Assembly (NCBI GenBank): GCA_026026165.1 | Contig: JAPEUD010000101.1 | Location: forward strand, 1-64,000 | DNA from: Sarea resinae | Taxonomy: Eukaryota | Reading direction: 5' to 3' | Length of the DNA: 64,000 nt | Shown: positions 2,428 through 62,900 of the stretch, in pieces | Numbering within the stretch: position 1 is the first letter of the stretch | How the letters are laid out: each line of letters starts with the position of its first letter | Notes under the pieces: generated by a model | What the model was told of the DNA's origin: nothing | The model's database searches: none | What the model saw: only the letters and a program-made list of their open reading frames with translations | Translations under genes and position numbers: made by a program

Positions 2428-2898
2428 CCATCCAGCACTCGTCCTCTACCGTCACAGCCGTCTGCGTGCGTGAACCCCAAAGTGAGAGAGAGTGAGGTAG
2501 TCCGCACCGGTTGTGGTCGAAAATCAAACTCTCTAAACTTCCAGTTCAACAGATCACCGGCAACCTGCCTCCCAACTGCCTTGAGGTGGTCCGCCCTCCA
2601 CCTGCCGAATCACCGCCATCAATCATCGCCTCTCTCACTTGAGCCGCTCATCTATCGGTCTATCAGCCTCACGTCACCGACCCGACGCATTGACGGCCCA
2701 GACCCCCCCGTTCACATCCTCGTCTTTCTGCTCGTGGCCTGCATCCGTCGTGGCTGGTGACTGGGCAATCCGGACCCGCGTTTGCGACTCGCTACGACTC
2801 AAACGTATGGACGGCCAAACAGACTCCCGTGGCGGGTAGTCGTTCATCGAGATCACGACTCATCCTGGAGTGGCGGAGGAGGGAGGAAAGGGGACGCC

Positions 2899-5800
2899 AT
2901 GGGACCTCCGCCGCCTTCGTCGTCTCCCAAGCCTACGAAATCCACGGCTCGTTCAGAAAGTGGTGTTGCTTCTCAGCCCTTGGACATCCCCCGACCCTAC
3001 ACGCCACCCTCATTTCGCTCGACACAAGACGTGGCAGACGACCACAATGCGACGACTCTCGTCCCAGGACGGCCGACTCGAGCTGCAAAGCCAGCAGTGC
3101 AGAGCACGGCCGGCAATGAAGGCTCAGACACATTGACGAGGGCTTCCGTCGAAGGCGGTTCTCTCACGGCAAATAGAGAGAACGGTAAGGTTGACGAAAT
3201 CGAGAGACTGAGGGAAGCAGTCAACGCAAAACTTCGATTGAGCCAACAGCGCGATCGTTTGGTGAGACAGATGTCGTCTTCATCTCCGGGAAGTCCTCTC
3301 GCGAAGGGCGTCCCTTCAAAGGTCTCTCCGATAATCGAGGAAACCACTGCGCTCCATTCTCCCACACTGGACGCGGCTTTCTCGAGTCCAACAGTATCAG
3401 GACCGCCAACAGCCTCAACCGAGTCTGGACTCACTGTTCGCGACGGGCAAACGCCGGGGGTTCGCCCTGGGCTGACTACTTCTTATCCATTTCCACCGAT
3501 GTCATGGTCTGGAATTTCAAAGGACCCGGGTACGCCACGCCATAAGCCGTTCACGGCATTGTCGCCGACTGTCGCGCCCTTCTCCTTTGGCGGTGGACCT
3601 AACTTTCCGGAATACCAAGACAATCGAGTGATGTCTGGTTCGGCTACTCCAATGTCGACCAAGGCTTTTCTGCCCCCAAATGCTTCGGATGTGAGGAGTT
3701 ATTCGGACTATTCGAGTCCCAATCTCTATGATATCACTCTGACGCTCAATTCGGAGCCCGGCCTTGATTCGTGGTGGACGAACGTCGTGGAAGTCTTGAG
3801 AGACAACTACCAGGCAGATAGAGTCTCGCTCGCGGTGCCAGGTGACAGCACCGACCCAGAGAATGTTCCGTGGGGCCAGAAAGCGACGTTCAATGTAATC
3901 GAAGAAGACCATCTCAGCCTGGCGTATCTGTCCCCAACGATTCAAAGGAGCGATCAGATGGAGGATGCCTCTGAGGCCGTGTTGGAGAAGATGGAGGGCA
4001 TCGATGAACTATTACCATCTTCTCGACGAGCCAGTCGGCCGAACCTCGAATCTCGACATTCGTTCTCGGCCTTCGACAACCGAGAAAATGAGGCACCCAA
4101 CGAGTCCGCACAGGTGCAAGGAGCGAGATTTGCAAGACCGGGCTTAGGCCGGACTATCAGTCACACCGCACCGACTGCAAAAGATCCGCGACGCGTCGGG
4201 GAATTTCTTGGAGCTGAGCTCAAGTCCGATGCGCTTAGGGAATATAATACTCAGCAAAGGGTACAGCAGGCCGCCCAGCAACTTGCCGACATCCATAATC
4301 CGGTGGCTCGTCAACCGCGTGGTCGAGTCTTCTCCGTGCTACAACCATTGTTCTTTGAAGCTGATCCTCTGATTGATATCGGCGGTGTGTCCAGGGTCAT
4401 CGAGCGGGGGAAGATGGTTGTGCTCTCTAGAGAGTATCCGGACGCTTCTCAACCAGGAAGCGATAACACACCTGGGTCTGAGTCGGAGAAGAGGAAGTCA
4501 AATTTGGCTAGGTGGGGCGAAGCGCCTGACATGCGTACCCCCAAGACTACTTCCAAGGCTGGACTCAGCTCTAGTACGGACCAGGAGGAAGCCTCTATGG
4601 CGACGCTACACTTACCGGCCTCAAGTTTTCCTTCGTCAATTGGCCAGCGTATACCGAATCGGCCTAGTGAGGGCTTGAGGGGCTATCCCTTCAAGGGCGC
4701 CGACGGTCCTCATCCGACATCCGTTCAGCCTTTGCTTTACGAAGAATTCGAACAGATTCCTGCTTCTCCTTGGTCGCAGTCGCCTGCCCCTTCACCAGCT
4801 GTTCGCCCCGATCCAGAAGAAAACCCCTTTTTCGCGTCTGCAAAAGCCGAAGAGCAGTCATTCAACCCGTCCGCCAGTCCGCAAGATTATACGAGCAACC
4901 CGCGAGTCGAAGCGATTGGGGTTGACACAGCAAGTACAATAATTCACATTCCTTTGATACATCCCTTGTTATCAAAGCCCTTACATATGTCTGGAGCCCA
5001 GACACCTTCAGACAAGGCACATCAGGGAGCAGAATATTCACGACCAGGCGATCGGTTCAGGGAACACCCTTTTGGCATGGCGCCCGAGAAGAAAATTCCA
5101 ATTGCTATCATCTCCGTCATGTCGCCCGTCATACCGTACCCATCAAATCTCTATCGATCTCTTGAATATTTGTCCCCCCATCTCGCTACTTCTTTCTCGC
5201 AGGCTCGGCATATGTCGAATTTGCAGAGCGAAGCCGCAGGTTTGGCACGTCGTCGCCCGCATGGTCCTTCTAACAGCCTCGGTTTCGGGGCAGTCATCCA
5301 GGACTCGAAGCCTCTGGAGGAACTAGCGAACCTTGATCAAGTTCTCCTGCGATCGAGTTCCGATGAGATCGCCGGTGGCTCCAATAATGGCAGCGTCACT
5401 AGCCCCAGCGAATACTCCGGAATCTCGAAAAGCAGCCCCCCGGGCTCGGCAGCAGGTACCCCAGGATGGGAGTTCTCTCAACTTGGAATGCCGACCGAAC
5501 AGCGTTCGAGCGGGAGCACTCCTGGCTTTCCTTCCACGTCCGAGCCGGTCGATAGCTACTTCAGTGCTAAACAGAGACACAGCTTGCATAAATCAAGCAA
5601 TGGAACGACGTCTGTGCACGTCGCCACTAGTCCAAAGCCGACGGAGCATATCCCTGTTCCTACCGCTGCTGAGTTGCGCGCGTCAAAGAAGGAGTCTGTT
5701 GCAAAATTGGGAACTGGCCAGACAAAAGAGCGCCACTCCCCACAAGGTAACGGAAAAGAATCTCCGAAGGAAAGCAGTTCATCGGGTCGAACATCCGTGC

Positions 5801-8800
5801 GAAATTCTAGTCCCTCTCGGGGGCATGGCGAACATGCCAATTCGCACCGAAAGAGAGCTTCAGGGAGTAACACCCAGAAAGGGGAGAGGCCTCATTCTCT
5901 CTTACATTCTTATGGTGCCGACTTCAACGCAACCTATCAGTCTTTGCCTGCTGCTACCGCTTCTCGACCCCGGGCTACTGTCCGTGACAAAACCCACTCT
6001 CGGAGCAACTCCGCATCATCGCCTACAGACCAATCCAACATGCCTCCTCCATCGGAACGTCTATTGCGTACGATAATTGATTCCATACCTGTGCAAATAT
6101 TCACTGCTGCGCCAAGGACTGGTGCGATAACATGGGTAAACTCGAAATTCCTCACGTACAGAGGTCAAACAGTCGAACAATTTGCAAAAGACCCCTGGCA
6201 ATCGATCCATCCCGAGGAACGCGAAGAGTATCTAAGGATGTGGTCTCAAGCACTTGGCAGTGGGCAGGACTTTTCCCATCAAGTTCGTATCTGTAGATTT
6301 GACGGTACCTATCGCTGGTTCTACGTTCGAGCGGCACCTTTAAGGGACACTCGCGGCATCACAGTGCATTGGTGTGGGACGTACATGGATATTCATGAAC
6401 AACATGTTGCAGAGGTCAACGCTGCCCGGCAGAAGGAGACAGCGGCGTCCGAAGCAAAGTACCGGGCGTTGGCGAATTCAAGTCCTCAGATTGTCTTCGC
6501 AGCGACACGGACGGCTGGAATAACCTTTGCCAACACTCAATGGGTCTCCTACTCCGGACAACCGTATGAGGAGGCTCTCGGTCTCGGATTTATGGCATAT
6601 GTTCATCCAGAGGATATTGTGAAGTGCAAATTACCCAGTTTTATCGACTCGGACTCGAAGTCTCCTGATGTGCCAATCAGTTTGCCAGCTCGCCCACGCC
6701 GGAAACAGTCATCAGCCCCCTCAACTGAAGCCTCAGAGTCTACAGCTGGATCAGACAAGACGATTCAACCTCCAGCGTTGAAACGCATGAATACTCATTC
6801 CAGTGAATTTTCTGGAATGGATCTGCCAGTCACAGAGCTCTCCGAGTTAGCAAGGACAGGCATTCTTAAGGTGTCGAAGAGTAGTAGTGGCAAACCATCT
6901 TATTCTACAGAGGTTCGACTAAGATCGAGGGAGGGTGAGTACCGGTGGCATCTTGTGCGGTGCTTGGCCGTGCAGTCCATAGACCCGGGATCCAGCGAAG
7001 AATCATGGTTCGGAACGTGCACAGATATCAACGATCACAAGCTCCTCGAGCACAAACTCAAGGAAACTATGGACTCAAAGACACGGTTTTTGAGCAATAT
7101 GTCGCATGAAATTCGAACACCTCTGAATGGAATCTCCGGGATGGTCAATTTCCTTCTTGACACTCCTCTTACGGACGAACAAATGGACTCTGTCAATATT
7201 GTGAGAACCAGTTGCGAAAATCTCGGCTACTTGATCAACGATATATTGGATCTTTCAAAGGTTGAGGCGGGCATGGTCAAGCTTTCGTTTGAGCCATTCT
7301 ACGTCCGGTCAGTCATTGAGGAGGTCAACGATCTTATATCGGCACTCGCTATCAAGAAACGCCTTGAGCTCAACTATGTCGTCGATGAGGATGTTCCAGC
7401 ACGAGTCCGGGGTGACAGGATCAGGATTCGTCAGGTCCTTCTTAATATCATCGGAAACGCCATTAAATTCACGTCAGAAGGAGAAGTTTTTCTACATTGC
7501 AAAGTCTATCGGAATGACGAGACGACCGTCCAAGAAGATGAAGTTGCGATTTCGTTCGAGATCGAGGATACCGGTAGTGGTTTCACAGAACAGGAAGCCG
7601 AACTGCTGTTCAAGCCCTTTAGCCAGATCGATGGCAGCAGCACACGGCAGCACGGAGGGAGCGGCCTAGGCTTGGTAATCTCTCGACAACTTGTCGAGTT
7701 GCATGGCGGGAAGATGAGAGCGACAAGCGTGCCCGGACGGGGATCAACATTCACATTCTATGTGAAATTCTCCATGACGTCGCCTGACTTGCAGCGAAAC
7801 GACTCTGCTGAGTCTCATGCAAATGTGGTTCCTTCTGACCATGGGTCGTCTGCGGCCAGCCCTAGCACGAGCTTGCCACCAGTCGCAGACAAGAACATCT
7901 TCAGTCCCATCCTTGCAAAGCCTTTAACTCAGTCACCGTCACCGATAGGCCAGCCCATCGATCCTGGCCACGACTCACCCGCGATGCAATCGTCTGGGAG
8001 TTCTGACCCCTCGATTCGCTCTTTCCAAAGCCTACGTTCCGAGAGATCCTCTGCATCTTCAGTCTTTCCTGGCCTAGGAGCAGCTTTTTTGGAAAACGCC
8101 CATCCTTTGAAGCTTGCTCTTCCTCCTCTCCACGAGCGCAATGCCCCTTCACCACCTCGAAGTGCCACTCCTTCAGGATCACTTCCGCTGCCTCCACCGC
8201 CGATGTATTCGGTGCTTGTTGTCTGCCCCTTGGACCACAGTCGTAGCGCTACAGTCAAGCACTTAGAGCAGACTCTGCCAGAGGAGATTCCCCATCAAAT
8301 TACTGCGCAGGCTGACGTTGAGGAAAGCCTTACGATGCTCGCGGGTGATGACCCTGTTGTCTTCACACATATCGTACTTAACCTTCGGGAATCAGAGGAT
8401 ATAATTGCTTTCCTAGACGAAGTCATCGGCTCTCCTTCTTTCAGTCGCACATCTATGATAATCACATCAGACTCGGTTCAGAAGCGGGAGATCCTTAGAT
8501 TGGCGCCAAAGTACGATTTCGATAGACTTGTCAAAGATCGCCGAGTCCTTTTCATCTTCAAGCCTCTAAAGCCCTCCAAGTTCGCCGATATCTTCGATCC
8601 GTATAAGGTGAGAAATCTAAGCATGGATCGCAATCGCGACAGTGCGCAGCAAGTTGCGGAAAGTCAAAAACAGATATTCGCAAAGATGGAGGATATCATT
8701 GGCAACCGGGGACATCGAATTCTCCTTGTCGAGGACAACGAGATCAATCAGAAGGTACGATCGTAGTGGTAATCTAAAATCATTGAGGCTGACATAGACT

Positions 8801-10327: not shown

Positions 10328-11772
10328 ATGGCATTCTTGTTTGGGCGCAACCGGCAAAAGTCCGCATCCGACCTTGCCAGGACAACAAAAGCATTGATCC
10401 CAGAAGATGGAACGATCTCGCCCAAGGCATGACTTCCTGAACCTACGCTGCTATGCTACACAACTAACGTCTTGCCAAGGCGGAAGAAGAGCTCGTCAAG
10501 AATCTGGCACAGATGAAATTGTTGCTACAAGGCACTCCCGGTGAGTCTGGATTCCTGCCCCGAGCGTATGCATCTGCAACGTTGGGAACAGCGGCTGATC
10601 CAAATGCCCTGGCATCAGACACCGACAGCAATCCCGAGCAGGTCAACCAGCTCGTAACCTCCGCATTGCAGGAAGATCTTCTATTGTCTCTTGCCAAGTA
10701 TCTACGAAGACTACCGTTTGAATCACGCAAAGACTGCCAGGTCATATTCTCCTACGTCCTTCGATTCAACCCTCCAAATAGCAACTCAAATGAGCCGATT
10801 GCTCTTCGTCACGTCATCAACAACAAACCGGAGGTTATCACAGAGTTATGCAAAGGCTACCAGAGGAACGGACCGGGTGAGAGCTCGAGCGCGATAGCGA
10901 GCGGGACCGTCCTGAGAGAAGTCTTGAAGCACGACGCCATTGCCGCCATCATCTTGTACGATGAACCCGAAGCGGGCGGAAGGGCCCGGCGTTTGACGAA
11001 TATCGATCCAGAGGTTCCACAAACAGGAAACGGTGTGTTTTGGCGATTTTTCGATTACATAGATAAGGGCACGTTCGAAGTCAGCGCGGATGCATTCACG
11101 ACATTCAGAGTAGGCACCCTCACTTCTGCTATGGACTGCGATCGCAAGGTCACGAAGCTAAACTCGCTCAGGAAATCCTGACCAAACACAAGTCGCTCGT
11201 CTCTCAATATCTCTCGACCAACTTCGATCTCTTTTTCTCAAGATACAACACCATCCTGGTCCAATCGAACAGCTACGTCACGAAAAGACAGTCGATAAAG
11301 CTGTTAGGGGAGATACTCCTCGACCGCGCGAATTATCAGGTCATGACTGCCTACGTCGACCGAGGCGAGCATCTCAAGCTGATCATGAACCTGCTCAGGG
11401 ATGACCGTAAGATGGTTCAGTACGAGAGCTTCCACGTCTTCAAGGTATATCTTCATCCACCCAGCCCATATTACGTTGAGGCGATCCTAGCAGCTAACAA
11501 AATCCCTCGGAAAGGTCTTCGTCGCAAATCCCAACAAATCCGTCGCCGTCCAACGAATTCTCATCAACAACCGAGACCGCCTCTTGCGCTTTCTACCCAA
11601 GTTCCTGGAAGACCGAACAGAGGACGATCAATTTACGGACGAAAAGAGCTTCTTGATCCGACAGATTGAAAACCTGCCGTCTGTGCCCATCGACAAGAGC
11701 ACCAGCAGCAACAGCAATCCGGTTGAGACCAATGGGGTCGTCTCTGGCACCGCTGTTCCGCAAAGAGGCTAG
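10328..11772 (+). CDS. hymA: HymA/Mo25 (CAB39) family scaffold; exons 10328-10426, 10480-10540, 10619-11109, 11172-11444, 11515-11772
   Basis: Spliced protein has LPFESRKDCQVIFS, FEVSADAFTTFREILTKHK, SNSYVTKRQSIKLLGEILLDRANY and YESFHVFKVFVANP, all Mo25 hallmarks. Intron 1 requires a GC donor. Confidence 0.93.
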
Positions 11773-12751
11773 TCCTTCGACTCAATGTGTGTGTATCGAA
11801 CGCGAAGACCTTTATGGACAAACAGTGCGGACAGAGAGCTTTTTGTGTCTCCTTTCATTTATTGATTTGTTTGGGGCGACATGGAAGGCGAAGACCACCG
11901 AATCTACGATTTCACGAACGAACCGCGGGGCCTCGGATAGGGTCCAAGTATAGCTGTTTACAAGAACAAACCTGCATTTTCCTGGAGCGTTGGCGTCTTT
12001 GTTTGTTTTCTTGCCCTCTCATAAACGAGTGATTTACGGGTTTTGTTCCCTGATCGTTTGGCCGATGGATGGATTGTTTGATCGATCGAAATTTGAGGCA
12101 AATGGAAAGGGAGGCGCCAAATCAAGGGCATTGGCAGGAAAAAGCCGAAATATCAAGTGCATCATTCATGCAGTACATTCGCATTCGTGTTTACAGCCCC
12201 TTCGTCTCATCAGCTTTTACTATCATCATCATCGTCATCCTTTTGGCTTCTCTTTTTCGTCTCCTGCAGTTCTAGTCAGGTACGCATGGGCGGGCAGGTC
12301 ATGGGCATCTCTCCTTTTGCCCGTATCTCGTCTCGTCTCTCTCGCCGGCGTTTTGTTTGCTGGGCTTGCTCGTGTGTGTGCGTGTATGTGTGGGTTACTG
12401 GATTACTGGATTACCAGGATGGACATTTCTATCTATCTGTGTTGTCATGTGCTGTGATGTGAAGCATAACGAAGATAGCTTACCCATAGCCATAACCATA
12501 GCCATAGCCACGTGAATAAAAGAATGGAAAGAAAGAAAGAAAGGAAGTTTTGTCTTGGTGTCTTGGTGTTTTGGTGATCTGTTTTGGTATCCCTCTATCG
12601 CAATACGCTCTTCCAGCACAGGGCCGGAATATGCCGTATCTTGGCTCGCCTGCCTTTGGACACTAATGGACGTGGATTTGTTATGGCAACCGCCTGGCAG
12701 TCGTAGACTCATCTGCTCCAGAACTCTTCAACCGCAGGCACTTCTCAATGA

Positions 12752-13438
12752 ATGATGGAAGGTGACGAGGTGGATATTGCTGCCTCTATGGGGTTCGCCT
12801 CGTTCGGCTCTCAGATCAACAAGAAGCGCAAATACAATCCGCATGCCGACGATGCCACCGATTCAGCTCCAGCGCGGCAAAACCAGAAGAGACCCCCAGG
12901 GAGTGGTAGCAACATGATGCCTTTGGGTATACCAAAGTCGAGAGAACATAGCGCGCCCGAACAATTACCCCTTGCCTGTCCAAGGCCGACACCAGCTTCT
13001 ACAGCCGAGTCGCAGCTGGAAGATGAAGGCGGAGACCCGAAATACTTGGAAGAGACGCCCTCGCCTGAGTCGAATGCTGGAAATCATGTCAACCTTTCGA
13101 CGCTGCCAGATATCACGGCAACGTCAGCGACAGCGACCGGTGGGGAAATTGCGGCTGCGACTGGTGGAGCTTCTTCGAATGCTTTACCTCAAAGACCCGC
13201 CAGGAACGGCCCCCCACCAGGACAGTTCAGTCCAAGGTCTTTCACTGGAGCAGTTTCGCGTGACCTTTCTGGCGACTTGAATACTACAGCTGGAGAAACG
13301 GCACCAAGGACCTCATTACAAGACCTCAGGCGCGGCGTAAGGGATGCGCATGGGGATATTGCCTATTACGACCCAAGCTTCGTCGAGGATCCATGGAAAG
13401 CTCTGTTTGAGGCCAAGAAGACCGGTGATACTGGATGA
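12752..13438 (+). CDS. Single-exon 228-aa mostly disordered protein with N-terminal MGFASFGS..KKRK and C-terminal YYDPSFVEDPWKAL motifs (MPLKIP/TTDN1-like, tentative)
   Basis: ATG-initiated ORF with protein-like composition, a basic NLS-like KKRK and motif-like ends separated by a P/S/T/A-rich linker. Confidence 0.75.
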   Translation: MMEGDEVDIAASMGFASFGSQINKKRKYNPHADDATDSAPARQNQKRPPGSGSNMMPLGIPKSREHSAPEQLPLACPRPTPASTAESQLEDEGGDPKYLEETPSPESNAGNHVNLSTLPDITATSATATGGEIAAATGGASSNALPQRPARNGPPPGQFSPRSFTGAVSRDLSGDLNTTAGETAPRTSLQDLRRGVRDAHGDIAYYDPSFVEDPWKALFEAKKTGDTG

Positions 13439-14904
13439 AAAATAGACAGAGTTGTGGAGATCTTTGTGTAGGGAATTGGAATGGGAAAACATTTATATTG
13501 GCAGGGCTGAAGATCTCTGCAATAGAGTCATTTAGCCTTCGGCTGCAGCCGACTACATATTGGATTTACCATTGCCCAGGTGAGCTTGTACAGGTTCCCC
13601 AGTCTTTGCTTGTCAAGTGACCGGAGCGGTTGCTGCGAAGATGTCGTTTTGCACTGCATTTCGCCCATCTGTCAAGTGCATATCTACTTCTACCATAGCG
13701 AAGCTAATACTATATTAGGGGTACCTCGACCCTCCCAGCAGCTAAGCTCCTGCAGCCTCTGCGGTACGCAATTCTGCAATGCTATCTACGCTAGTGCTGG
13801 TGTCGTCTTATGCCGAGAGAAGAGAGCCTCTACCAGAATCGCATGAGCAACAGATGACAGGGATGGCCTCGCCCGTATCCTGTTATATCAGATGGACAGG
13901 GCTTCCACGTGTTTGCACTCTCCAGCTTGTACCAATAGGCAATAACAATAGCAGACCGGTCTGGTATGAGAGCAGTCATAGAGCATGAACTCTTCCAGCC
14001 TCGTCTCTAATCTCTCCCTTTGCGGTTTAGCTGCCCGGCTCAAGCTGCTCTTGCTAAGCCAGGCTTTCTTCAAATCAGTCAATCACAGTCACGGGAGCAT
14101 CCAACGGTACCAGAAGGGGAAAACGCTTATTACTGCCAGTGCGAAAAGTCCGTCTACACGTGCAAGGGGTTCCAGAAAAAGAAACGAGCCGCCTGAATGA
14201 AAACAAACGATCCCCACCCCATCCCTTTCGTCCATGATGCCCCCCACACCAGGCTAAGAAATCCCGAACCAGAACCAAGGAAACTCCCTAGCCAGGGAAC
14301 CAGCACCCCCTCCTCCACCGTCACCCTAGCCGGCCCGCCTGTGCGTATGTGTGTGATGTGTGACGAAGCAACCCCGTCCTGCAGCCCACAGCACATACCA
14401 CATGGAGCACTAGCAAAGCCCCTGGCAGCCCCATGCCATCCATGTCCTCCACATTTCGGCATGGCAGGCAGGGAAAAGGCGCAGCTAGCAGCCGCACGCA
14501 ACTCCCTGCCCACCCACCCACCCACCCGTCCAATATCCTAGTCACAGGCCGTAGCGTCGTTCACCAAAACAAGCGCGCGGGAAAAGACAAACGAACAGAG
14601 TAAAGCAGCAAGCAGAACAAGCCACACCAGTGCCGAGCAAAAGCAGCGACGAGAACAAAGACATAGCAACGCAGCGGTAGTATAGCGTAGCGGAGAGCAG
14701 CGGAGCGGAACCGAAGTAGTCCACTGCCCCGCCCGCCCGCCCGCCCGCCCGCCACTCCGCCCACGAGTCCGCTTGCTCGCTATCAGTAGGGCGGAAAAGG
14801 ATTAAATGAAGAAGAAAAAAAGCCAGCCGAGCACGCAATCAACCCAGATTACCCATCTTGTTCTGAAACGATCGATCGATCGGAATTTTGGAGGAAGCGC
14901 CGAC

Positions 14905-15840
14905 TTAATAATCCACCGGCGCGGGATACCGGCCCTGCGCGACGCCGTATTGGCCGGGATATTTCCTCTCCGTCTTGGTCTTGAGCTGTCTATATGTCGG
15001 AGATACACCTCGTCAGCGCGTGAATTCCAATTTCTTTCTCTTCTCACTCAGAAAACAATCCGTCTCCGCCGCACAAGGCCCCGCCCCCCCCAAAAAACAG
15101 TAGAGGCGGGAAAGAGAGAAAACAAAGGGAGGCAGGGAATGGGAACCACAGCAGAAAGCACAAAGCACGACGGAAAACGGAAAACTCACGCGGTCCGCTT
15201 GGCCGTCCACTCGAGATCGCGCTTGACCTCCTTGGCGGCCTTGATGCCGTCGGCGAAATTCGCCCGCGAGCCCGCGAGCCGCCGCTGCGCGAGCGCCTGC
15301 AGCTCGCGCAGCTCGCGCGTCTTGGCGTTCAGCTCGCCCGATCTGTGCGCGCGCGAGCGTTGGTCAGTTTTGGCGCCACGCCAGATAAATGGAAAGCGGG
15401 GAAAAGGAAAGGAAAGGAAGGGGCATCACATACGTCTGCGCCTGCGTGACCAGGCCGCGGTCGAGCGGCAGCGGATCAAACGCGCCCTGCAGCCGCTCGC
15501 CCATGAGGGCCACGAGATCGATGCTGCCGGCGCCGGCGCCGTGGGGGCCCGCGCCACCGCCGAGGCCGAGGCCGCTGGCCGAGCTCGACGACGACCCATC
15601 GTACTCGGTGCCGGAGCTGAAGTCGGAGTTCGTGTACGTCGACGGCGCCACGGACGGCCCGTTGCTGTGCGGTGGCGTCGGCAGCGAGGAGGCTTCGGGC
15701 GGCGAGGTCGCGAGGCGCTGGTGCGCGTGGTGCGCGTTGTAGGGCGGTCCGGACGTGGTGGGTTTGGAGGGGTAGGAGATTGGTAGCGGCGGCGAGGTCG
15801 AGGAGGATGTGTAGAGTGGGTAGGGCGTTTGGCTGGACAT
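14905..15840 (-). CDS. KXD1: BLOC-1/BORC subunit KXD1 (KxDL domain); exons 15840-15434, 15342-15190, 14989-14905
   Basis: Spliced: ...LMGERLQGAFDPLPLDRGLVTQAQT|SGELNAKTRELRELQALAQRRL...AKEVKRDLEWTAKRTA|QLKTKTERKYPGQY...VDY*. KRDL matches the KxDL motif; GT-AG introns 15433-15343 and 15189-14990. Confidence 0.85.
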
Positions 15841-16009
15841 TTTTGTTTTTTTTCGTGTTTGGGGGTTTGTTTGTGCCGAGGGAGGGCTTGGTGGGTGAAT
15901 TGATAGTGAAGGAAGTGGGTTGGTAGGTGGAAAAGAATATATCGACTTCGACGTCGATAATTGATGGATAGATAGATAGGAGAGTATGGACGGATATGAT
16001 AGAATCTGT

Positions 16010-17060
16010 GATACAGTACAGTTACAGTATAACAGTATAACAGTATAACAGTATAACAGTATGATAGATGGATACAGATGAAGCTGTGAAGAAAATATAA
16101 ATCGGAATCAGAAAGAGTCGAGCGGTCCCTCCATCCTCCGCCGTCCTTTTATACCCCCGACGCCCTTCTCTCCTCCACCCCCTCCCACCCCCTTCGCTCC
16201 CATTCCCCGGCCGTGAGTAAGTGAGTGAGTGAGTGAGTGAGTGAGCGGACGGGTGGACGGACCGACGGGCGGTGCAAAGACTGTCCGTCTGTCCGTCTGT
16301 CCGTCTGGCTGGCTGGCTGGCTGGCTGGCTGGTTGTTAGTGTGATATGGTATGTATAATATCCCCGAGGGTAGTGGCGGAGGGCAGGGTAGGAGTCTGAC
16401 CTCCCCCCCACCCCTGAAACATAGATAAAGAGAGAGAGAAAGAGAGAGGAAAAAAGTAAAGATGGAATGGCACAAGTCGGCTCAGCTTCCTGATCAATCG
16501 GATCGAATCAACGCGGGTCAGCATAGCATAGCATAGGCAAGCACCGAGCCAAGCCAAGCCAAGCATATCAAACAAGCAAGCATATCAAACAAGTATTCCA
16601 AATCGAATCGACCGATCAGCTCGACAATGCCCGAGGGCGGTGTCTGTCTGTCTGCCTGTCTGTCTGTCTGTGTCCGAGCGGGTCCCGTCGTGGTCTCGCC
16701 ACTCTGTGGACGGGGTGGATGGTTTTGGGATATTCGAGCATTCCCCCCCTTCCCTCCCCCTCCGCTGCCGACGGTTTGACCGTCTGGATGTGTCTTTCGC
16801 TGTGTGTATGTATGTATGTATGTGTGTGTGCATATGTCCTGTCGTATCGGATCATGTCGATTGACGGAGCAGCAGCAGTAGCAGCGGTGGCAGCAGTGCA
16901 GAGGACCCGGCCCGGTCACAGTCAGGTCAGGTCAGGTCAGCCACAGTGTCAAAGCGGCGGGGGACAGAAGTGACGCGGCTAGTTGATCGGCTGCTGCTTG
17001 GAAACAGAAGCCTAGCAGGATAGGATAGGATAGGTTAGGACAGGACGGCAAGGGAAAGGA
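16010..17060. repeat. Dense compound microsatellite block: (CAGTATAA)n, (GAGT)n, (GGCT)n, (AG)n, (AGCAT)n, (GTCT)n, (TATG)n, (GTCAG)n, (GGATA)n and a 17-mer duplication AAGCATATCAAACAAGC
   Basis: Directly visible short arrays of many different units. Confidence 0.9.
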
Positions 17061-20543: not shown

Positions 20544-23500
20544 CTATTCCAGCTCCTGGCCCAAGACTCTAATCTCATCATCTGAGAGAGCAGACATCCA
20601 AAGACAGCGATCGATGACCCCTTCGACGGGACGGAAAGAATATTTGTTGGTCGACTCGAGGAGTCGCAGCAAGTTTTTAATGATAGAGGCAGCTGCACGA
20701 TGACGTTCAAAGTTGATCAAAGCTTCGTCGACGCGAGGTCCCGGGAAATCTGCAGGCTTCTGAGCGTTGAAAAGAAGGTCGTGGATATATAGGCCTGCAA
20801 CATTTAGTCTTGAAGATCAGAGAATACGGAAGATCGGGGAGCTCACCAATGAAAGGAACACAGCCTTCCTCTCCTGTGATGGTCTCCATCTCAGTCCTGA
20901 GATTGTGGAAGTTGCGCGTAGGCTGTACCAGCGATTCTAGTTCCTTAAATGTCCGGAGATCGGCGGCAGGAACAAGCTCCCACGTTTTCGAAAGCTTCGC
21001 ACAATCCGCTGACAATAGCGCCATAGTGATCTGGTACATCGTGGCGTAGTTGTGGTACTTCCTAGCATACGCTGCAATATGGATGTACTTGACTATCGTC
21101 CGCGCTCTTTCTTTGATATCGCGTGTTAGGAGACACTCGGACACGGCCCATTTGACCATAAGGTTGAAACGCCCAACCACCATTTCGACACCCTGAGGTG
21201 CCCCTGTCCTGAGAAACTCGACCCAATCTCTGACGGGCGGCGTATCCTGCTTCCATCGCAATTCTGCGAGCTCTTTCCAATCGATCTCATTCAAAGCATC
21301 TTTTTCGATAAGCGTAAGCTGTTCGGCCAGCACTTGAGAGTCAAAAGCGAGTATGAATGGGAGATGAGAGGCTGACTCCTTCAGCACAGATGTGTCTCGA
21401 CCTGTCTTCGCGAGTCCTAGAGTTGATTCTTTGGACACTTTCTGACTGTAACTGACACCTCGTGATCCTCTGTTCGTGGGAGTCAGTTGTGGGGTTGGAA
21501 GTTGATGTTGGTACCCCATCTGATTTGGCTCTGGTGATTTCGGCAAGGTCGGATCGAGAGTCAAAGGTGGGGATGGCGGATGGCGTAAGGGGTGTGATAC
21601 TAAACCCAGCTCTGAGACAATCAACCCAGATCCTGCGTGAGCTAACGTTTTCCCATGCTCGTCCGCAGAGTTGCTGACTACCTCAATCGAAAGCTCCGAC
21701 GAAAGATCACTCGCACTTCCGCAGTCCTCGCTAAGCGGAGGTTCTTCACCGGCAGTCTCGTCCGGAAGAGTAGAGCCTCGAGGAATACGCTGCATGCTCT
21801 CTGTCTCCTCTATGTATTCAAACGAAGGATGCGAAGAAGTAGGATTGCTCACAACGAGACTCTGCCAGTTGCTGACTGGAGGCTCGGGCGCTGAAGGTAA
21901 AGACCATTTTCCACTAGTCTGCTGTATGCTCAGAGAACCATCGCTCAGTCCGCGATCGAGAAGGGGTATAGAGCAATAAGAATCTCCTGATCCAGATGAA
22001 CGAGGGGAATAGCGAACATTGCCCAGCGATTTTCGATATTCTGAATCTCTTACTGAAGCGTCGGAGGGATCAATTTCTCGTACGTGCACCGTCTGTCCTT
22101 CGGGGGCTATTGATGATTGTATGAGCTGGCTTGATGCAATCCTCTGGTTCCGACGTTGCCGTTTGCTAGCAGTGTCATAGTCGGAAGTGCGACTGTCGCT
22201 GGGAGGAGCAGAGTCAGACACATATGACAGGTGGTTCCTTTCTTGGCCAAAGGTCTGTTCGAGAGACCGTCTTGACGCCCTGCTCTTATATTTACCCTCT
22301 AACTTCAGCAAAGCACACTCAATTCCGCCATCCTCGTCATCGTCATCAGGTAGCTGAGCAAGTTTGGCAACCTGTGCTTCGAATGATGGCCTCATATTTG
22401 GCTGCGACGAGTGTGTTTCCACCAATGTTAGTGGACGCTTCAAGCTGGTCTCGGCGAGTGCACCGAGAGAACAGTTCTTGAGTGTGGGCGACAATGAGTC
22501 GCTATAGCGCGTTTCACGAGGAGAAAGGGGCGAAGATGGAATCATGGAACCTTGAAGAGAATGAGAGTATGTCAGAGAACCTGTCGATCGGCTACGCGTC
22601 AATGAGTGGAGATCTTGGACATGTTGTGCAGCGCGGAGATCGCCTCCAGGTCGCCTCCTCAACGTTGGAGCAGCAGGCTTCTCGGCTGAGTCGTTTGAGG
22701 AGTCTTCGAGACTATAGGATGCAGTCGTTGCGTCAAAACTCGGCGCAGCGCCATGCTTGGGCATACCACTCTGGAAAGACGCATAGCGACCTATAGACAT
22801 GGATGCAGATCTGACCGAGTTGAATGATTTGCCGCGGCCGAAGAAAGGTGGCTTTGTCCGGCTTGAAGACGAGCGCTCAGAGTATCTTTGAGACATGGAC
22901 GTGCTGTGCGCGCGATGCAATCGGGAAGCAATAGAAGGGCTGGGCTCAAAAAAATAGCGGCCGCTTATGCTACCGGGAAGATCTTGTTCGGTATTGTTAG
23001 GCGATGATTTTAAAGATGTCTGGTCGGTCTCTTGCGGTGGTGTTATAGGCCTAGCCGGCGTCGGTGAATCGGTTCTCACCTCAAGCAATGGCTCATTAGG
23101 CAAGGTGCCGGACCTGATGGCGTAATCTGGCCCTGTATCATCGACGATAACAATTGATTCGCTAGTCATGGACACTCCACTCGGGGCTTGGGAAATATGA
23201 GATGGTTGGAGATATATGGGTTGATTGTCAAGTGGCAGAGGTGAAGGGTCAAGCTGACTCTGTGACGAGTGTTCTGAGGCTGCCGAGGGCCTTCTTTCGG
23301 CCTCGGCGTTTTCTCTCATGACCTCCTTGAACGTTTCTGCGGTCCTAGCTCCAAGCACATCAATCCGCGAAGTAGATGCCGTTCTAGTCTTCTTCGTTGC
23401 CTTTTCGGGAGAATACATGGGAACACCTAAGCGCTTATGTGCAGAAGCACCTGGATCAGTGCCATCCGTAGCGTTTGAGACTTGGCTTCCGCTCTGCTTG

Positions 23501-25920
23501 GTGCTGAGGGCTCGTCGAACGCTGCCGAGAAGCCTTTTAACCCCAGGGCTGGTACCTGGGATGGGTCTGATAGATCCGGCGAGCACTCGCGCAACGTCCA
23601 TCGTATTCAGGTCAAAATTTGGCGCTTGCTCAAGAGGACTACTAGGAGCAATGCCTGCCACGTGAGGCTGGCCCGGAGGAAGGATGTTACCTCTGACAAG
23701 GCTTCCTCCGAAAGGTAGTGGCGTAAGAGAGTGGGTACTATGAAAGATGGCCTTTTGTAGCGAGATAGGGGCGCGGCTATCTCTCAGCGCATCGGAAAAG
23801 CTACCACTCTTCTTATGAATTTGCACAGGTCTGACAGGCTTTCCGACTGCGGGAGGGATAGAAGCTGCTGTAGCAGTATTCCTGACCATCGCAATATCAG
23901 TGACTGGCACAGGACGAGGCGCAAACCTGGACGCCGCATGTTTGTATCCTTTGGCAGGGATAGAGCAAGACATGACTTGCAAGCTGCGATCGCTTTTTGG
24001 CGAGATTGGCTGCTCCGCGGTTTCCGGAGACATCCTGACGGATGGTACCGACCCAGAGCGTTGGTGACTTGCATTCAATTGTTCGTCACTTCGCTGACTG
24101 TTTTCAGTGGCAAAAATGCGTGAGGGTGCATTCGAGCCTGACTGTAAAACCGTGTCTACCGTAGGCGGTACAGCATTTAGATCGTGATGCGCCAGATGAG
24201 CAAAGGAAGGTGTTCTCAACTCGCGGCTTCCGACAGCTCCGCCAGGTAGAATGTCATCGATTGGATCCCCATCACTGCAGATATTTGGTTCGTCCCAATA
24301 CAAGCAGCTTGTCCGTCGCCAGCATTTTTTCAACTCTCCCAAAATCTTCAGGTCGCCTCCACCACCATCAGCCCTTTGCTGGAGTCGTTGACAGAGTAGG
24401 TTTACCTGATCGCAGAAAAGCTTTCGCAGATTGAAATCAGGGACAAAATCATCGACAAAGTAATTGAGGATCCAGTGTCGTAGAGCAACGAAGGTACGGA
24501 CCCGGATGACGCGGCCACAACTCTCGGCACGGTCAACTGCCCACTGTAGCCGGGCGAGCAAGTAGTCAACCAGCTCATACGTGGAAAGAAAGGATCGAAA
24601 GGTCAGGAAGAAGTCTGATAGCAGGTCATAATCAAGAAATTTGCAAGAAGTGATCTGTACGATGAGCCGAGGAATGGTTGCCGCAACGATCTCGCCGTTC
24701 ACTGGCGAATAGCGCACAACGGATGAGTCGTCCAACTTGCCACTTAAGGCATCATAGACCCCTGGTCCTATCAATTGTCCACAATACGAATTCGGAGTTA
24801 TCCTTGAAAACGAGGAACTGCGTTGGGTTGAATCGTGGAGAAAGAGGGTGTGGTCATAGTGAGACGTCTGTGCCATGCCAGGAGGTATTGGAAACAATCT
24901 ATTGTAGTCGCCTTTGGAAAAAATGGAAGAGTTCATATCTTCTGTTGTCGACTCCCGAGTGTACGCTGAGCTACGAAGGATAGCAGTACCGCGCACGCTG
25001 AATCGCGGGGTGCCAAGTCGATAATGCGGTATCGGAACTTCCAACGTGGGTATCGAATTGGGACCATCAGCCGTTTGAGGGCGTTCGGGTTCACCGTCCG
25101 CTCGGTGAATCACAATCCGGAGTCCTTCTGGATTGCGACTGTGATGATGAGTATTCTCATTGATCGTGGAAAAGGAGTGCGAGCGCTGATGCGTATAAGT
25201 TGGTCTCTGAAAGTACTGAGGTTGAGGTGGGACCTGGCTTGAGGAATCACTTGCTCGACGCGTCATGATCCCCGGCGTACGCGATGCCTGTGACCAGGGA
25301 CTATCTGTGAAGAGCTCGCTGGATCTTGAAGATTGTTTTGCCACGGCAGAGGGTTTACGAAAGAATGGAAAGACGAACGAGGGCTGCTCTAGACGTTGCT
25401 GAACGGGGCGTATGACCGGCCTGCAATGAATCGATAATCAGTATGATGTTCTGGCCGTATCAATTCACCACTGCCACGAGCTCTTGAATCGAAGGACAAG
25501 AGCTCCGAGAATTGAAGCGCACCTGAGATATATCATGCCATTATTCCCAACATTGCCCACCGTGAACTGCCTCCCCGTCCTCCCCGCCGAAGTCCCGTCC
25601 GACGCGATATTCCCACTACTCGCCGCACGCGAACGTTTCCGGAGCTCTTCCGTGCTGTTTTTCGCGTTTCGAATCGAATTCTGCCGTCCTCTTCTCTGCA
25701 CGCTTCGTTTGCGCGAAACCGGCGCAAGTCTAACGCCTCCTTTCGCACCCTCTTCGATCGACCCTGCTTTCTTGGTGTCCGTATTCGTCTCCGTCTCCTT
25801 CGGCTCCTTCTCCTTCCTCGCCTCCTCCAGCGCAGCACCGTTGTCTCCTCCAGCATCTTGCGGTATTGGCTTTGGGCCCGAAGAGGGCTCCTCCGGTGCT
25901 ACGGCCTCCATGATGCTCAT
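20544..25920 (-). CDS. LTE1: Lte1-like Ras guanine nucleotide exchange factor (RasGEF_N + CDC25 domain); exons 25920-25523, 25420-20847, 20794-20544
   Basis: REM domain DFFLTFRSFLS...RVRTFVALRHWILNYFVDDF; CDC25 domain LAEQLTLIEKDALNEIDWKEL...GCVPFIG|LYIHDLLFNAQKP...LINFERHRAAASIIK; long S/P-rich linker between them. Confidence 0.87.
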
Positions 25921-59918: not shown

Positions 59919-62900
59919 ATGGGTGTTCCCGCGCTGTTTCGTTGGCTCTCGCAGAAGTATCCGAAGATCATCTCGCCAGTCATCGAGGCGCAATCTCAAG
60001 AGATCGACGGCCAGGAAATCCCCGTCGATATTAGTGGTCCTAATCCAAATGGAGAAGAAATGGACAATCTCTATCTCGATATGAACGGGATTGTCCACCC
60101 TTGCTCGCACCCAGAAGACAGGCCTCCGCCAGCCACTGAGGAAGAGATGATGCTGGAAATATTTAAATATACTGATAGAGTCATCAACATGGTGCGGCCG
60201 AGAAAGATATTGATGATTGCTGTTGGTAGGTCTTCGTTTCTGTTGTCGTCAGCGGTTCATTCAATGTTGTAGGCTCCGAATAGCTTGATCTTCTAGTCTG
60301 CTTATCCAGCACTGACATGATTTTCTTCGTAGATGGCGTTGCTCCAAGAGCTAAGATGAACCAACAACGGTCGCGACGATTCCGTTCCGCTAAGGAAGCA
60401 AAGGAGAAAGACGAAAGCAAAGAGGAATTTTTGAAAATGCTAAAATCCAAAAACGGTAGCTCTGTCGGTGATGATACCACAGAACCCGAGAATAAAAAGA
60501 CATGGGACAGCAATGCAATTACTCCCGGCACCCCATTTATGGACATTCTTGCTTCAAGTTTACGATATTGGACTGCTTACAAACTCAACACTGATCCGGC
60601 TTGGGCAAAGGTATGTCTCCTCTGTGGGTCGGTTTGCAAGTCTCAGGCTCACAGGGCTCTAGGTGAAAGTAATCATATCCGATGCCACTGTGCCTGGAGA
60701 AGGGGAGCACAAGATCATGGAGTTTATCCGATCTCAACGTTCCTCTCCTGAACATGACCCGAATACCCGGCATGTCATATATGGACTGGTATGTTAGCTA
60801 TGATTTCATCCATGACAAATAAAACGCCCACGCTAAATCTCTCAAAGGACGCCGATCTGATTATGTTGGGTCTCGCAACCCACGAGCCACACTTCAGAGT
60901 TCTACGTGAAGACGTCTTTTTCCAAGAATCGAAAGCGCGTACGTGTCGAATCTGCGGTCAGAAAGGGCATAAGGCAGAAGAGTGCCGAGGTGAAGCAAAG
61001 CAGAAGGACGGAGAGTTCGATGAAAAGGATAAGGCTCATCCTTTGAAACCGTTCATCTGGCTTCACGTCGCCGTACTCCGTGAATATCTTCAAGCAGAGC
61101 TACATGTTCCTCAGCAACCATTCAGATTTGACTTGGAGAGAGCCCTCGATGATTGGGTTTTTATGTGCTTCTTCGTTGGTAATGACTTCTTACCTCATCT
61201 GCCCAGTCTTGATATCCGAGAAAACGGTATTGACACATTGATCGCAATATGGAGGGACAATCTGCCTGCGATGGGAGGCTACGTCACTAAGGACGGACAC
61301 GTCGATTTAGAAAGGGCGCAGTTCATTCTTTCTGGACTAGCAAGACAGGAGGATGCCATATTCCGGCGTCGACGTCAAACCGAGGAGCGGAAAGAACGGA
61401 ATGCGAAGCGCCGAAAACTCGAAGAGCAACGTAACAACAGCCATCGAAAGTCAGATAACGGTAGCTCCCTTGCTCCTCGAGGTCGCAGAGGTTCCCCAGA
61501 CTATGGCACTCCCACCAATAGGAGGAGCTCGGGTGCGCTGGTCAACCCTACGGTAGCGCCGGATATCCCCCTTTTTACCCCTGGAAAAGGAGATATTTCC
61601 AAAGAAGAGAGAATTGTGACCCACGACATGGCTGTCAATCGTGGTGCCATATACAAGGCAAATATGGCTAACAAGAGTGCCGCTCTTGCCTTGAAAAGTC
61701 AGTTGCTAGGGAAAGGCTCACCCGGTGCAGCATCGAATGGCGAAGGAGATGAAATGGGCAAGACTGACGCAGATGTGACTAGTGATTTGGCTAATGGCGA
61801 AGCAAGCTCAACGGATACGCCTTCCTCTCTTGGGAAGAGGAAAGCAGAATTGATGCAGGACGATGATGCTGGTACGCCCGGACGGCAGAGCCCCAATCCC
61901 GGAAATGCCACCAAACCTGACTCGGATGATCTACCCCCCGATACTGTCCGCCTGTGGGAAGACGGCTACGCTGACCGATACTACGAGCAAAAGTTTGGCG
62001 TGGATCCCAAAAATATCGGATTTCGTAATAAGGTGGCCAGGGCTTACGTCGAGGGGCTTGCCTGGGTTCTATTGTACTACTTTCAAGGATGCCCCTCGTG
62101 GACTTGGTATTATCCTTACCATTACGCTCCATTTGCTGCCGATTTTGTGGACATAGATAAGATGAAGATATCTTTTGAGAGGGGAACGCCATTCAAACCC
62201 TTCGAACAGCTTATGGGTGTGCTTCCTGCAGCGTCTAATCACGCAATCCCTCCTGTATTTCGGGACTTGATGACGGACGAGGACAGCGATATTATTGACT
62301 TCTACCCGGAAGAATTTCCTGTCGATTTAAATGGGAAGAAATTTGCTTGGCAAGGAGTCGCGTTACTTCCTTTCATCGACGAGAAGAGGCTACTGAAGGC
62401 CATGGCCACCAAATATCCTTTACTATCTGCCGAAGATGCAGCTAGAAATGCAATGGGAAAGGATGTATTGTTAATATCCGAGCGGCATCCCTTGTACGAA
62501 GATATTGCGAAGAATTTCTATTCGAAGAAACAGGGAGCGCCGAAGTACAAGCTCGATTCGAAAATTAGTGAAGGATTGGCCGGGAAGATCGAGAAGAATG
62601 ATGCCTATTTGCCGCAAAGTTCACTGACGTTCCCACTCCCAAACGGTGGAATGCCCGACCTAGAAGACGATCACTCTATCAGGTATGCCTGTCGCTCTCC
62701 TTGCTTTCTTTTGTAATTACTCTGCTTACCATTCAATTTATAGTGTTCATTACGAGATGCCACACTCTTCGCACGTCCATAAATCGATGCTGCTCCGCGG
62801 ACTCAAGATGCCCTCCCCAAAACTTGATCGGGCTGACATCGAAGGTACCAAGGGCCGGGCAGGCCGCTCAGGTCGTTCTTTCGGGGGTGCGCCTTTGAGG

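Follow-up and report, generated by a model that had tools for sequence, protein, structure and literature searches.

Within a 64,000-nucleotide (nt) stretch of Sarea resinae DNA (contig JAPEUD010000101.1, forward-strand positions 1-64,000; hereafter the window), the plus-strand interval 12752..13438 carries a real, conserved single-exon gene, whose product is built of three or four short islands set on a linker that is rich in Pro, Ala, Ser, Gly and Thr and poor in aromatic residues. This product is probably an adaptor that is intrinsically disordered and nuclear, and that corresponds in filamentous ascomycetes to human TTDN1/MPLKIP and Arabidopsis SICKLE, both of which associate with the lariat-debranching enzyme Dbr1. 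The recruitment of Dbr1 to excised lariats is understood in outline only, with TTDN1 and Aquarius acting in humans and SICKLE in plants, and for fungi the available portions of the cited work on Dbr1 recruitment discuss Drn1 alone. With a fungal TTDN1-like family defined, one could tell the ancestral parts of the disease protein TTDN1 from the rest. Such a family would also offer a simple handle on lariat turnover in genetically tractable moulds, since just three or four short peptides appear to carry its functions. The gene and its conserved elements are the following:

12752..13438, plus strand: coding sequence of the MPLKIP/TTDN1/SICKLE-like candidate, intrinsically disordered; single exon, ATG start, 228 codons plus TGA
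12773..12808, plus strand: N-terminal motif D8-G19, DIAASMGFASFG, proposed spliceosome-docking peptide (family conservation, PDB profile matches)
12821..12838, plus strand: basic patch K24-N29, KKRKYN (family conservation, alignments to nuclear localisation signal peptides)
12899..12928, plus strand: third conserved island G50-G59, GSGSNMMPLG, consensus G-x-N-x-x-P-L-G (column counts of the family alignment)
13325..13405, plus strand: C-terminal module L192-L218, LRRGVRDAHGDIAYYDPSFVEDPWKAL, predicted Dbr1-binding anchor (PF15502 match, family conservation, structure model)
13376-13396, plus strand: MPLKIP core S209-W215, SFVEDPW, inside the C-terminal module

Gene, family and architecture

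The 228-residue open reading frame (ORF) put forward by the first-pass annotation was recovered from the ORF list and its translation as an intact ATG-to-TGA frame, and the positions given for its two motifs are exact, with AYYDPSFVEDPWKAL at residues 204-218 (nt 13361-13405) and DIAASMGFASFGSQINKKRK at residues 8-27 (nt 12773-12832). Rival ORFs over the same interval, on the opposite strand or in other frames, are just 40-85 amino acids (aa) long. Two consecutive ATGs, at 12752 and 12755, open the main ORF, and a protein database entry identical to the product takes the second of these and thus has 227 aa. A five-codon upstream ORF (12748-12765, plus strand; ATG AAT GAT GGA AGG TGA) has its ATG 4 nt before that of the main ORF, which it overlaps out of frame.

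Relatives of the protein are numerous. A scan of 1.84 billion representative proteins returned 295 representatives at an expectation value (E) <=0.001, including 37 at E<=1e-10. A word-indexed protein search gave 8 relatives, including those of the lichen fungi Candelina and Pleopsidium, and every source-given name among the 67 matches of a profile search is "hypothetical" or "uncharacterized". The organisms behind these 67 matches include Coleophoma, Hyphodiscus, Podosphaera, Xylaria, Hypoxylon, Sordaria, Coniochaeta, Toensbergia and Xylona, and we take all named organisms with family members to be Pezizomycotina. Beyond the window's own record, the nearest relative shares just 35-40% identity with the S. 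resinae protein.

The pairing of the two terminal motifs is the most constant property of the family. Both [ML]GF..F and [ED][DN]PW are present in 147 of 157 retrieved proteins, while 7 have the N-terminal motif alone and 3 the C-terminal one alone. Family members have a median length of 189 aa (range 111-342); residue 17 is the median start of the N-terminal motif, and a median of 7 residues separates the Trp of the C-terminal motif from the C-terminus. Once the identical database sequence (P0002) and the 10 one-motif sequences had been dropped, 146 sequences remained, and all conservation values given here refer to the alignment of these 146. Within it, G14, F15, F18, F210, P214 and W215 are invariant, and M13, G19, K24, R26, K27, S209, E212 and D213 are conserved to at least 90%. 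An independent sample of 80 metagenome loci, picked through the C-motif pattern, has both motifs in 76 cases, with the N-terminal motif in the same ORF in 61 of them and in another frame at most 1.5 kb upstream in the other 15, which are probably intron-containing genes; of the 4 loci without it, 3 extend less than 320 nt upstream. A profile search of proteins of 600-2000 aa returned no fused or longer family forms at E<=10, which is weak evidence.

Judged from these comparisons, the conservation of both motifs is far beyond chance. A chance open frame or a pseudogene with coincidental motifs is effectively refuted by the conservation data, given that hundreds of homologues share the end-to-end architecture and keep the motif residues invariant, and given an intact frame whose competitors are short. 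The one point in favour of such a reading is that the sole metatranscriptome contig, 95-99% alike, spans 12300-12475 only, and thus lies upstream of the ORF, ending at a repeat. Two contigs of low depth, which are of DNA or unknown kind, span 12685-12921 and stretches downstream, and one contig covers the gene at full length, which may be the source assembly itself. The repeat in question, at 12476-12553 and about 200 nt upstream of the gene, consists of short simple repeats of CCATAG-type units and a GAAA-type unit.

Column counts of the alignment resolve four islands, at aa 6-19, 24-29, 50-59 and 192-218. The earlier view of a protein that is disordered except for two motifs, and of a two-motif architecture, thus holds for both motifs and broadly for the disorder, but it missed the conserved third island at aa 50-59 and the full extent of the 27-residue C-terminal module. 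In the third island, G52 (89%), N54 (93%), P57 (65%), L58 (81%) and G59 (87%) stand out, and of the 61 metagenome loci whose two motifs share an ORF, 59 match a regular expression for this island. An AlphaFold2 model built with the family alignment has a mean pLDDT, the predicted score of the local distance difference test, of 59.2 and a predicted template modelling (pTM) score of 0.20, with low confidence outside the motif regions. Means over ten-residue blocks reach a pLDDT of at least 70 only at residues 11-30 (72, 71) and 191-228 (80, 75, 78, 71), and the block of the third island, 51-60, has 68. The predicted secondary structure comprises helices at 6-12, 189-193 and 216-224 and a hairpin at 196-197/203-204. 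The linker (aa 36-185) consists to 57% of Pro, Ala, Ser, Gly and Thr, with 3 aromatic residues in 150, and across the family the median aromatic fraction of the linker is 2.2%. Together with the median length, the pLDDT and pTM values describe a small, otherwise disordered protein, as expected of the MPLKIP family.

The C-terminal module and the MPLKIP family

The C-terminal module (aa 192-218) follows the consensus L-R-x-G-V-R-N-x-x-G-D-x-x-Y-[FY]-x-P-S-F-[VIL]-E-D-P-W-x-x-L, and with L192, R193, G195, V196, G201, D202 and Y205 it extends about 17 residues upstream of the peptide first singled out. Conservation of EDPW in orthologues had been expected and is borne out, with E212 at 99%, D213 at 95% and both Pro and Trp at 100%; S209 (95%), G195 (98%), G201 (97%), D202 (92%) and Y205 (90%) are similarly constrained. 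Near the C-terminus, S209-F-V-E-D-P-W215 takes the place of the core heptad S-M-(L/A)-E-D-P-W and is conserved throughout the 146 sequences.

The proposed similarity to the MPLKIP profile is significant but formally sub-threshold, since Pfam PF15502 matches aa 204-219 against profile positions 22-37 of 64 at E 1.9e-5, with 25.1 bits against a curated gathering cut-off of 28.9 bits. Across the family, 144 of the 146 members match PF15502 at E<=1 (best 3.4e-10). The upstream element LRxGVRNxxGD lies outside the PF15502 match of the S. resinae protein. Searched against the PDB, the C-terminal module has no match at E<=10, so that no solved TTDN1 or SICKLE structure was found. In the ESM Atlas, aa 185-228 retrieve only "hypothetical" clusters of Ascomycota, one of which has PF15502 on 14% of its members; this serves as a lead only. 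With this evidence, we regard the protein as very probably a member of the MPLKIP-motif family, and, by analogy with TTDN1 and SICKLE, it is likely to bind Dbr1.

The analogy is drawn from the available portions of the sources cited here on TTDN1, SICKLE, Drn1 and Dbr1. For human TTDN1, a 19-fold effect on debranching kinetics in vitro is reported. In human TTDN1 (MPLKIP, C7orf11; PF15502, IPR028265), binding to DBR1 requires the CR1-2 region, which also suffices for it, with E146 and D147 being important, and M144V has a modest effect; a 122-residue prion-like domain with 14 aromatic residues mediates binding to AQR/XAB2 (10.1101/2022.11.03.515106). The fungal family keeps the equivalent of this E-D pair at 99% and 95%, within the same C-terminal S-x-x-E-D-P-W-x-x-L core, in a likewise small and almost wholly disordered protein that is presumably nuclear as well. 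The tether logic may also be shared, with Dbr1 held at one end and the spliceosome addressed by the other. Unlike TTDN1, the fungal protein lacks an aromatic-rich prion-like N-terminal domain, its linker being about 2% aromatic, and it has extra elements in the N-terminal MGFxSFG motif, the KKRK patch, the GxNxxPLG island and the upstream LRxGVRNxxGD. It further differs in having Phe where the human core has Met144, and in a PF15502 match that is limited to the 16-residue core and stays below the gathering cut-off.

Arabidopsis SICKLE is described as a disordered, proline-rich nuclear protein whose sole recognisable feature is the MPLKIP motif, which binds DBR1 directly and is needed for lariat debranching in vivo (10.1101/2023.07.25.550414). 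Replacement of its SMAEDPW heptad by alanines abolished the two-hybrid interaction with DBR1, weakened co-immunoprecipitation and destroyed complementation (10.1101/2023.07.25.550414). This heptad corresponds to S209-W215 of the fungal protein, the fungal core being SF[VIL]EDPW rather than SMAEDPW. When compared by description, SICKLE also differs at the other end, where the available text of the preprint (10.1101/2023.07.25.550414) does not describe an N-terminal MGF motif. Besides these, one further non-catalytic Dbr1-binding partner is known to connect debranching with the spliceosome, namely Drn1/CWF19L1 (PMC12238851, PMC10470207). It is comparable in role, but it is described as Dbr1-homologous, lacks the MPLKIP motif and has no sequence relation to the fungal protein.

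A small subgroup of the family (P0009, P0067, P0093 and P0121) has a variant C-terminal module, RNE-x-W-Y-x-x-YYDPSFNENPW. Here N-E-N-P-W stands for x-E-D-P-W, such that Asn takes the place of the Asp whose counterpart in human TTDN1 is important for binding DBR1. One member of this subgroup comes from the powdery mildew Podosphaera aphanis.

The designation of the S. resinae protein as an unrecognised fungal partner needs qualification. The occurrence of SM(L/A)EDPW in fungal proteins (IPR028265) is already reported in the SICKLE preprint, which, in its available portions, lists a supplementary alignment of fungal motifs (10.1101/2023.07.25.550414). Most family members are nevertheless unannotated; a precomputed PF15502 assignment is present on just 7 of the 67 profile-search matches because few members reach the Pfam cut-off. 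As this threshold misses about nine in ten family members, these stay "hypothetical proteins" in fungal genomes. No study of a fungal member was found in the searchable literature that mentions the MPLKIP motif or domain. Three things are new: a Pezizomycete family has been delineated whose multi-island architecture is fixed, most of its members fall under the Pfam threshold, and its N-terminal peptide resembles peptides of ZMAT2, SNRNP27K and WDR70.

The N-terminal peptide, the basic patch and a possible tether

The N-terminal consensus (aa 6-19) reads D-P-x-I-A-A-A-M-G-F-S-S-F-G, a short helix followed by MGFxxFG, in which G14, F15 and F18 are invariant and M13 (95%) and G19 (99%) nearly so. 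A likeness of this peptide to SNRNP27 had been proposed on inspection. Taken alone, the 228-aa protein does not match Pfam SNRNP27 (PF08648) significantly (E 0.2; aa 5-30 to profile positions 2-27 of 56, 12.2 bits against a 23.1-bit cut-off), but 43 of the 146 members do match at E<=1, the best at 2.3e-4. The full C-terminal domain of SNRNP27/27K, including the terminal segment of about 20 residues around M141, is absent, which indicates a shared sub-motif and no membership. In 27K, the well-studied M141 lies within the terminal 20 residues (PMC6140464), and the shared peptide, at aa 100-119, is located upstream of this segment.

Profile searches of the PDB sequence set (177,635 distinct sequences) extend the likeness beyond SNRNP27. 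With a profile of the whole family, there are two matches in all at E<=10, both via the MGF peptide: WDR70 (6zym_p; E 4.3e-4; DPQLAVTMGFTGFGKK, aa 18-33) and ZMAT2 (5o9z_N; E 0.004; DDEMAAVMGFSGFGSTK, near the C-terminus). A second profile, made of 30 columns of the N-terminal motif alone from 40 of the 146 family members, ranks ZMAT2 first (E 1.1e-4; aa 180-197 of 199), SNRNP27 second (6qw6_X; E 0.022; aa 100-119 of 155) and WDR70 third (E 0.058; aa 18-33), the latter two values being individually marginal; the second rank supports the resemblance of the motif to the first half of the SNRNP27 domain. Common to the fungal family and these three proteins is an acidic/hydrophobic helix, followed by MGF-[ST]-[SG]-F-[GD] and a basic stretch. 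In all four, the peptide lies in a terminal or disordered region, with Lys/Arg after it; in the three human proteins, it is found in the first half of PF08648 (SNRNP27K), at the C-terminus (ZMAT2/Snu23) and at the N-terminus (WDR70). Apart from the peptide these proteins are unrelated, SNRNP27K having an RS domain plus its own C-terminal domain, ZMAT2 a zinc finger and WDR70 a WD40 propeller, and the fungal protein also differs from SNRNP27K in lacking the M141-containing terminal segment.

The PDB entries behind the three matches are human spliceosome structures, namely, as we presume, the B complex (5o9z), the tri-snRNP (6qw6) and the C complex (6zym). In the literature, 27K is present in tri-snRNP (three small nuclear ribonucleoproteins) and pre-B (6QX9) models (PMC11098459), and SNU23 is treated as B-specific and 27K as pre-B-specific (PMC11143319). 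The spliceosomal link is stronger than in the first proposal, as the motif is present in ZMAT2 and WDR70 too. The ESM Atlas places "WD repeat domain 70" as the second-nearest named cluster for aa 1-40, with a score of 0.76 that is below the meaningful level and thus a lead only. No literature was found that ties WDR70, ZMAT2 and SNRNP27 together through a shared motif, in a search that covered structure papers in subscription journals only thinly, and the searchable literature offered no function for the MGF peptide. The same search gave no paper naming both SNRNP27K and ZMAT2, nor one joining WDR70 to cryo-EM and the C complex. The strings MGFSGFG, MGFTGFG, MGFSSFG, MGFxxFG and MGFxxF are absent among the literature matches listed, as is a structural description among the matches listed on WDR70 and the spliceosome. 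A role of the N-terminal motif as a spliceosome-docking peptide is, from these profile matches, a plausible but tentative proposal.

Following the MGF peptide, the basic patch (aa 24-29) has the consensus K-K-R-K-[YF]-N, with K24 at 91%, K25 at 78%, R26 at 96% and K27 at 91%. The remaining three PDB matches of the motif-only profile stem from this patch and include, with weak values (E 2.3-2.5), nuclear localisation signal (NLS) peptides of CBP80 (3ul0_C, 3ukz_C), in entries which we take to be importin-alpha complexes. This alignment supports KKRK as a classical monopartite NLS, which it probably is, and the patch is possibly also part of the docking motif.

These elements can be combined into a mechanism. 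The C-terminal module, LRxGVRNxxGDxxY[FY]xPSF[VIL]EDPWxxL, would bind Dbr1 in the way of the SM(L/A)EDPW cores of TTDN1 and SICKLE, and the KKRK patch would carry the protein, possibly with bound Dbr1, into the nucleus. There, the N-terminal helix-MGFxSFG-basic peptide would dock at the spliceosome site that is used by SNRNP27K (tri-snRNP/pre-B), ZMAT2/Snu23 (B) and WDR70 (C), while the flexible linker would keep Dbr1 tethered beside the excised lariat. The MGF peptide would thereby fill the role of the aromatic-rich, condensate-forming N-terminal region of TTDN1, which binds the Aquarius/XAB2 intron-binding complex; as the fungal family is without such a region, a discrete docking peptide is a natural substitute. 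A bolder extension, which we hold to be rather doubtful, is that the helix-MGFx(G/S)FG-basic peptide is a portable docking motif, used by unrelated proteins across splicing stages and joined in filamentous fungi to a TTDN1-like Dbr1 anchor, such that Dbr1 is delivered to the post-catalytic spliceosome via the same pocket. If true, the sharing of the peptide by 27K, ZMAT2, WDR70 and the fungal family would suggest that the spliceosome has a common docking site, used by one protein after another.

Several observations weigh against the TTDN1-like adaptor proposed here. At its Dbr1 end, PF15502 reaches the cut-off level in only about 11 of the 146 members (E<=1.4e-6, our own conversion of the 28.9-bit gathering score), the S. 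resinae protein itself scoring below that level. The match is just 16 residues long, such that common descent and short-motif convergence are inseparable, and Phe occupies the position of human M144, the site of the mutation in nonphotosensitive trichothiodystrophy (NP-TTD), in 151 of 151 fungal motif instances. According to the available text of PMC10470207 (JBC 2023), TTDN1 stimulates human but not Entamoeba Dbr1, and its hypothesis is that TTDN1 binds the C-terminal domain of Dbr1, which is said to be absent in yeast; if this is right and the Dbr1 of S. resinae resembles that of yeast, it may lack the partner surface. The same authors also allow binding to the catalytic domain. Taken together with the fungal-specific LRxGVRNxxGD beyond the match and the possible absence of the metazoan Dbr1 C-terminal domain from fungi, these points favour a reading of SFxEDPW as a convergent short linear motif, with a partner other than Dbr1 and a different nuclear function, for instance as a splicing factor in its own right or in a Polo-kinase-linked role, at which the name MPLKIP hints. 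We nevertheless find this reading improbable, since the available reports establish the motif-DBR1 interaction in human and Arabidopsis with exactly the residues that are invariant here, and since nearly all members match PF15502. The Polo-kinase variant was rejected, as no conserved S-[ST]-P polo-box site exists among the alignment columns of at least 60% identity.

At the spliceosomal end, the marginal values for SNRNP27 and WDR70 in the motif-only search count against docking, as does the fact that WDR70 also has non-spliceosomal roles. They leave room for a protein that is a Dbr1 partner via its C-terminal module, but in which MGFxSFG-KKRK is part of an import signal, an FG-type karyopherin contact, or the remnant of a UBA-like helix and "MGF loop". 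ZMAT2, SNRNP27 and WDR70 would then share the element merely as nuclear proteins with similar import or chaperoning needs. The alignment of the KKRK part to CBP80 NLS peptides agrees with this, and so does literature usage, in which "MGF motif", as far as the available matches go, denotes a UBA-domain loop, the titles being mostly on UBA or ubiquitin. A UBA identity was rejected on two grounds: no UBA family appears among the 25 Pfam families most matched by the 146 members at E<=1, and the UBA domain is a three-helix bundle of about 40 residues, whereas the model has just one short helix (6-12) before MGF in a motif of about 12 residues, with no space for UBA helices 2 and 3. Moreover, the best three PDB matches of 177,635 are spliceosome components and not generic nuclear proteins, and MGF..FG, with its invariant G, F and F, is more strictly conserved than the basic patch. 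The import-related alternative thus appears unlikely, though less so than convergence of the C-terminal motif.

Genomic surroundings

The window is ordinary filamentous-ascomycete nuclear DNA, in which Pfam scans identify the following further genes:

2761-8763, plus strand: PAS/HisKA/HATPase_c hybrid histidine kinase, 2001-codon frame
10468-11666, plus strand: Mo25
15189-15425, minus strand: KxDL-motif gene, convergent downstream neighbour, with a likely upstream exon in 15367-16107 (PF10241, E 1.1e-15)
20710-25437, minus strand: RasGEF
60758-62713, plus strand: XRN-family 5'-3' exonuclease (XRN_M, E 9e-143)
elsewhere in the window: M13 peptidase, ankyrin/DIL protein, allantoicase, Rav1, Sfi1 and Uso1

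The Pfam scans found no Dbr1 gene in the 64-kb window. Enzymes of the XRN class degrade debranched introns; the XRN gene lies 47 kb from the family gene, and we take this to be a coincidence. In two of the metagenome loci (L001 and L029), homologues of the histidine kinase lie close to the family gene, on the strand opposite to it. A plus-strand ORF at 14806-15786 was considered as a conserved gene and rejected as an antisense shadow of the KxDL gene, its tblastn matches elsewhere containing stop codons. The KxDL gene itself follows the family gene within 1-3 kb in 25 of the 41 metagenome loci with at least 2.5 kb of downstream sequence, an arrangement that we attribute to retained synteny rather than to a functional link.

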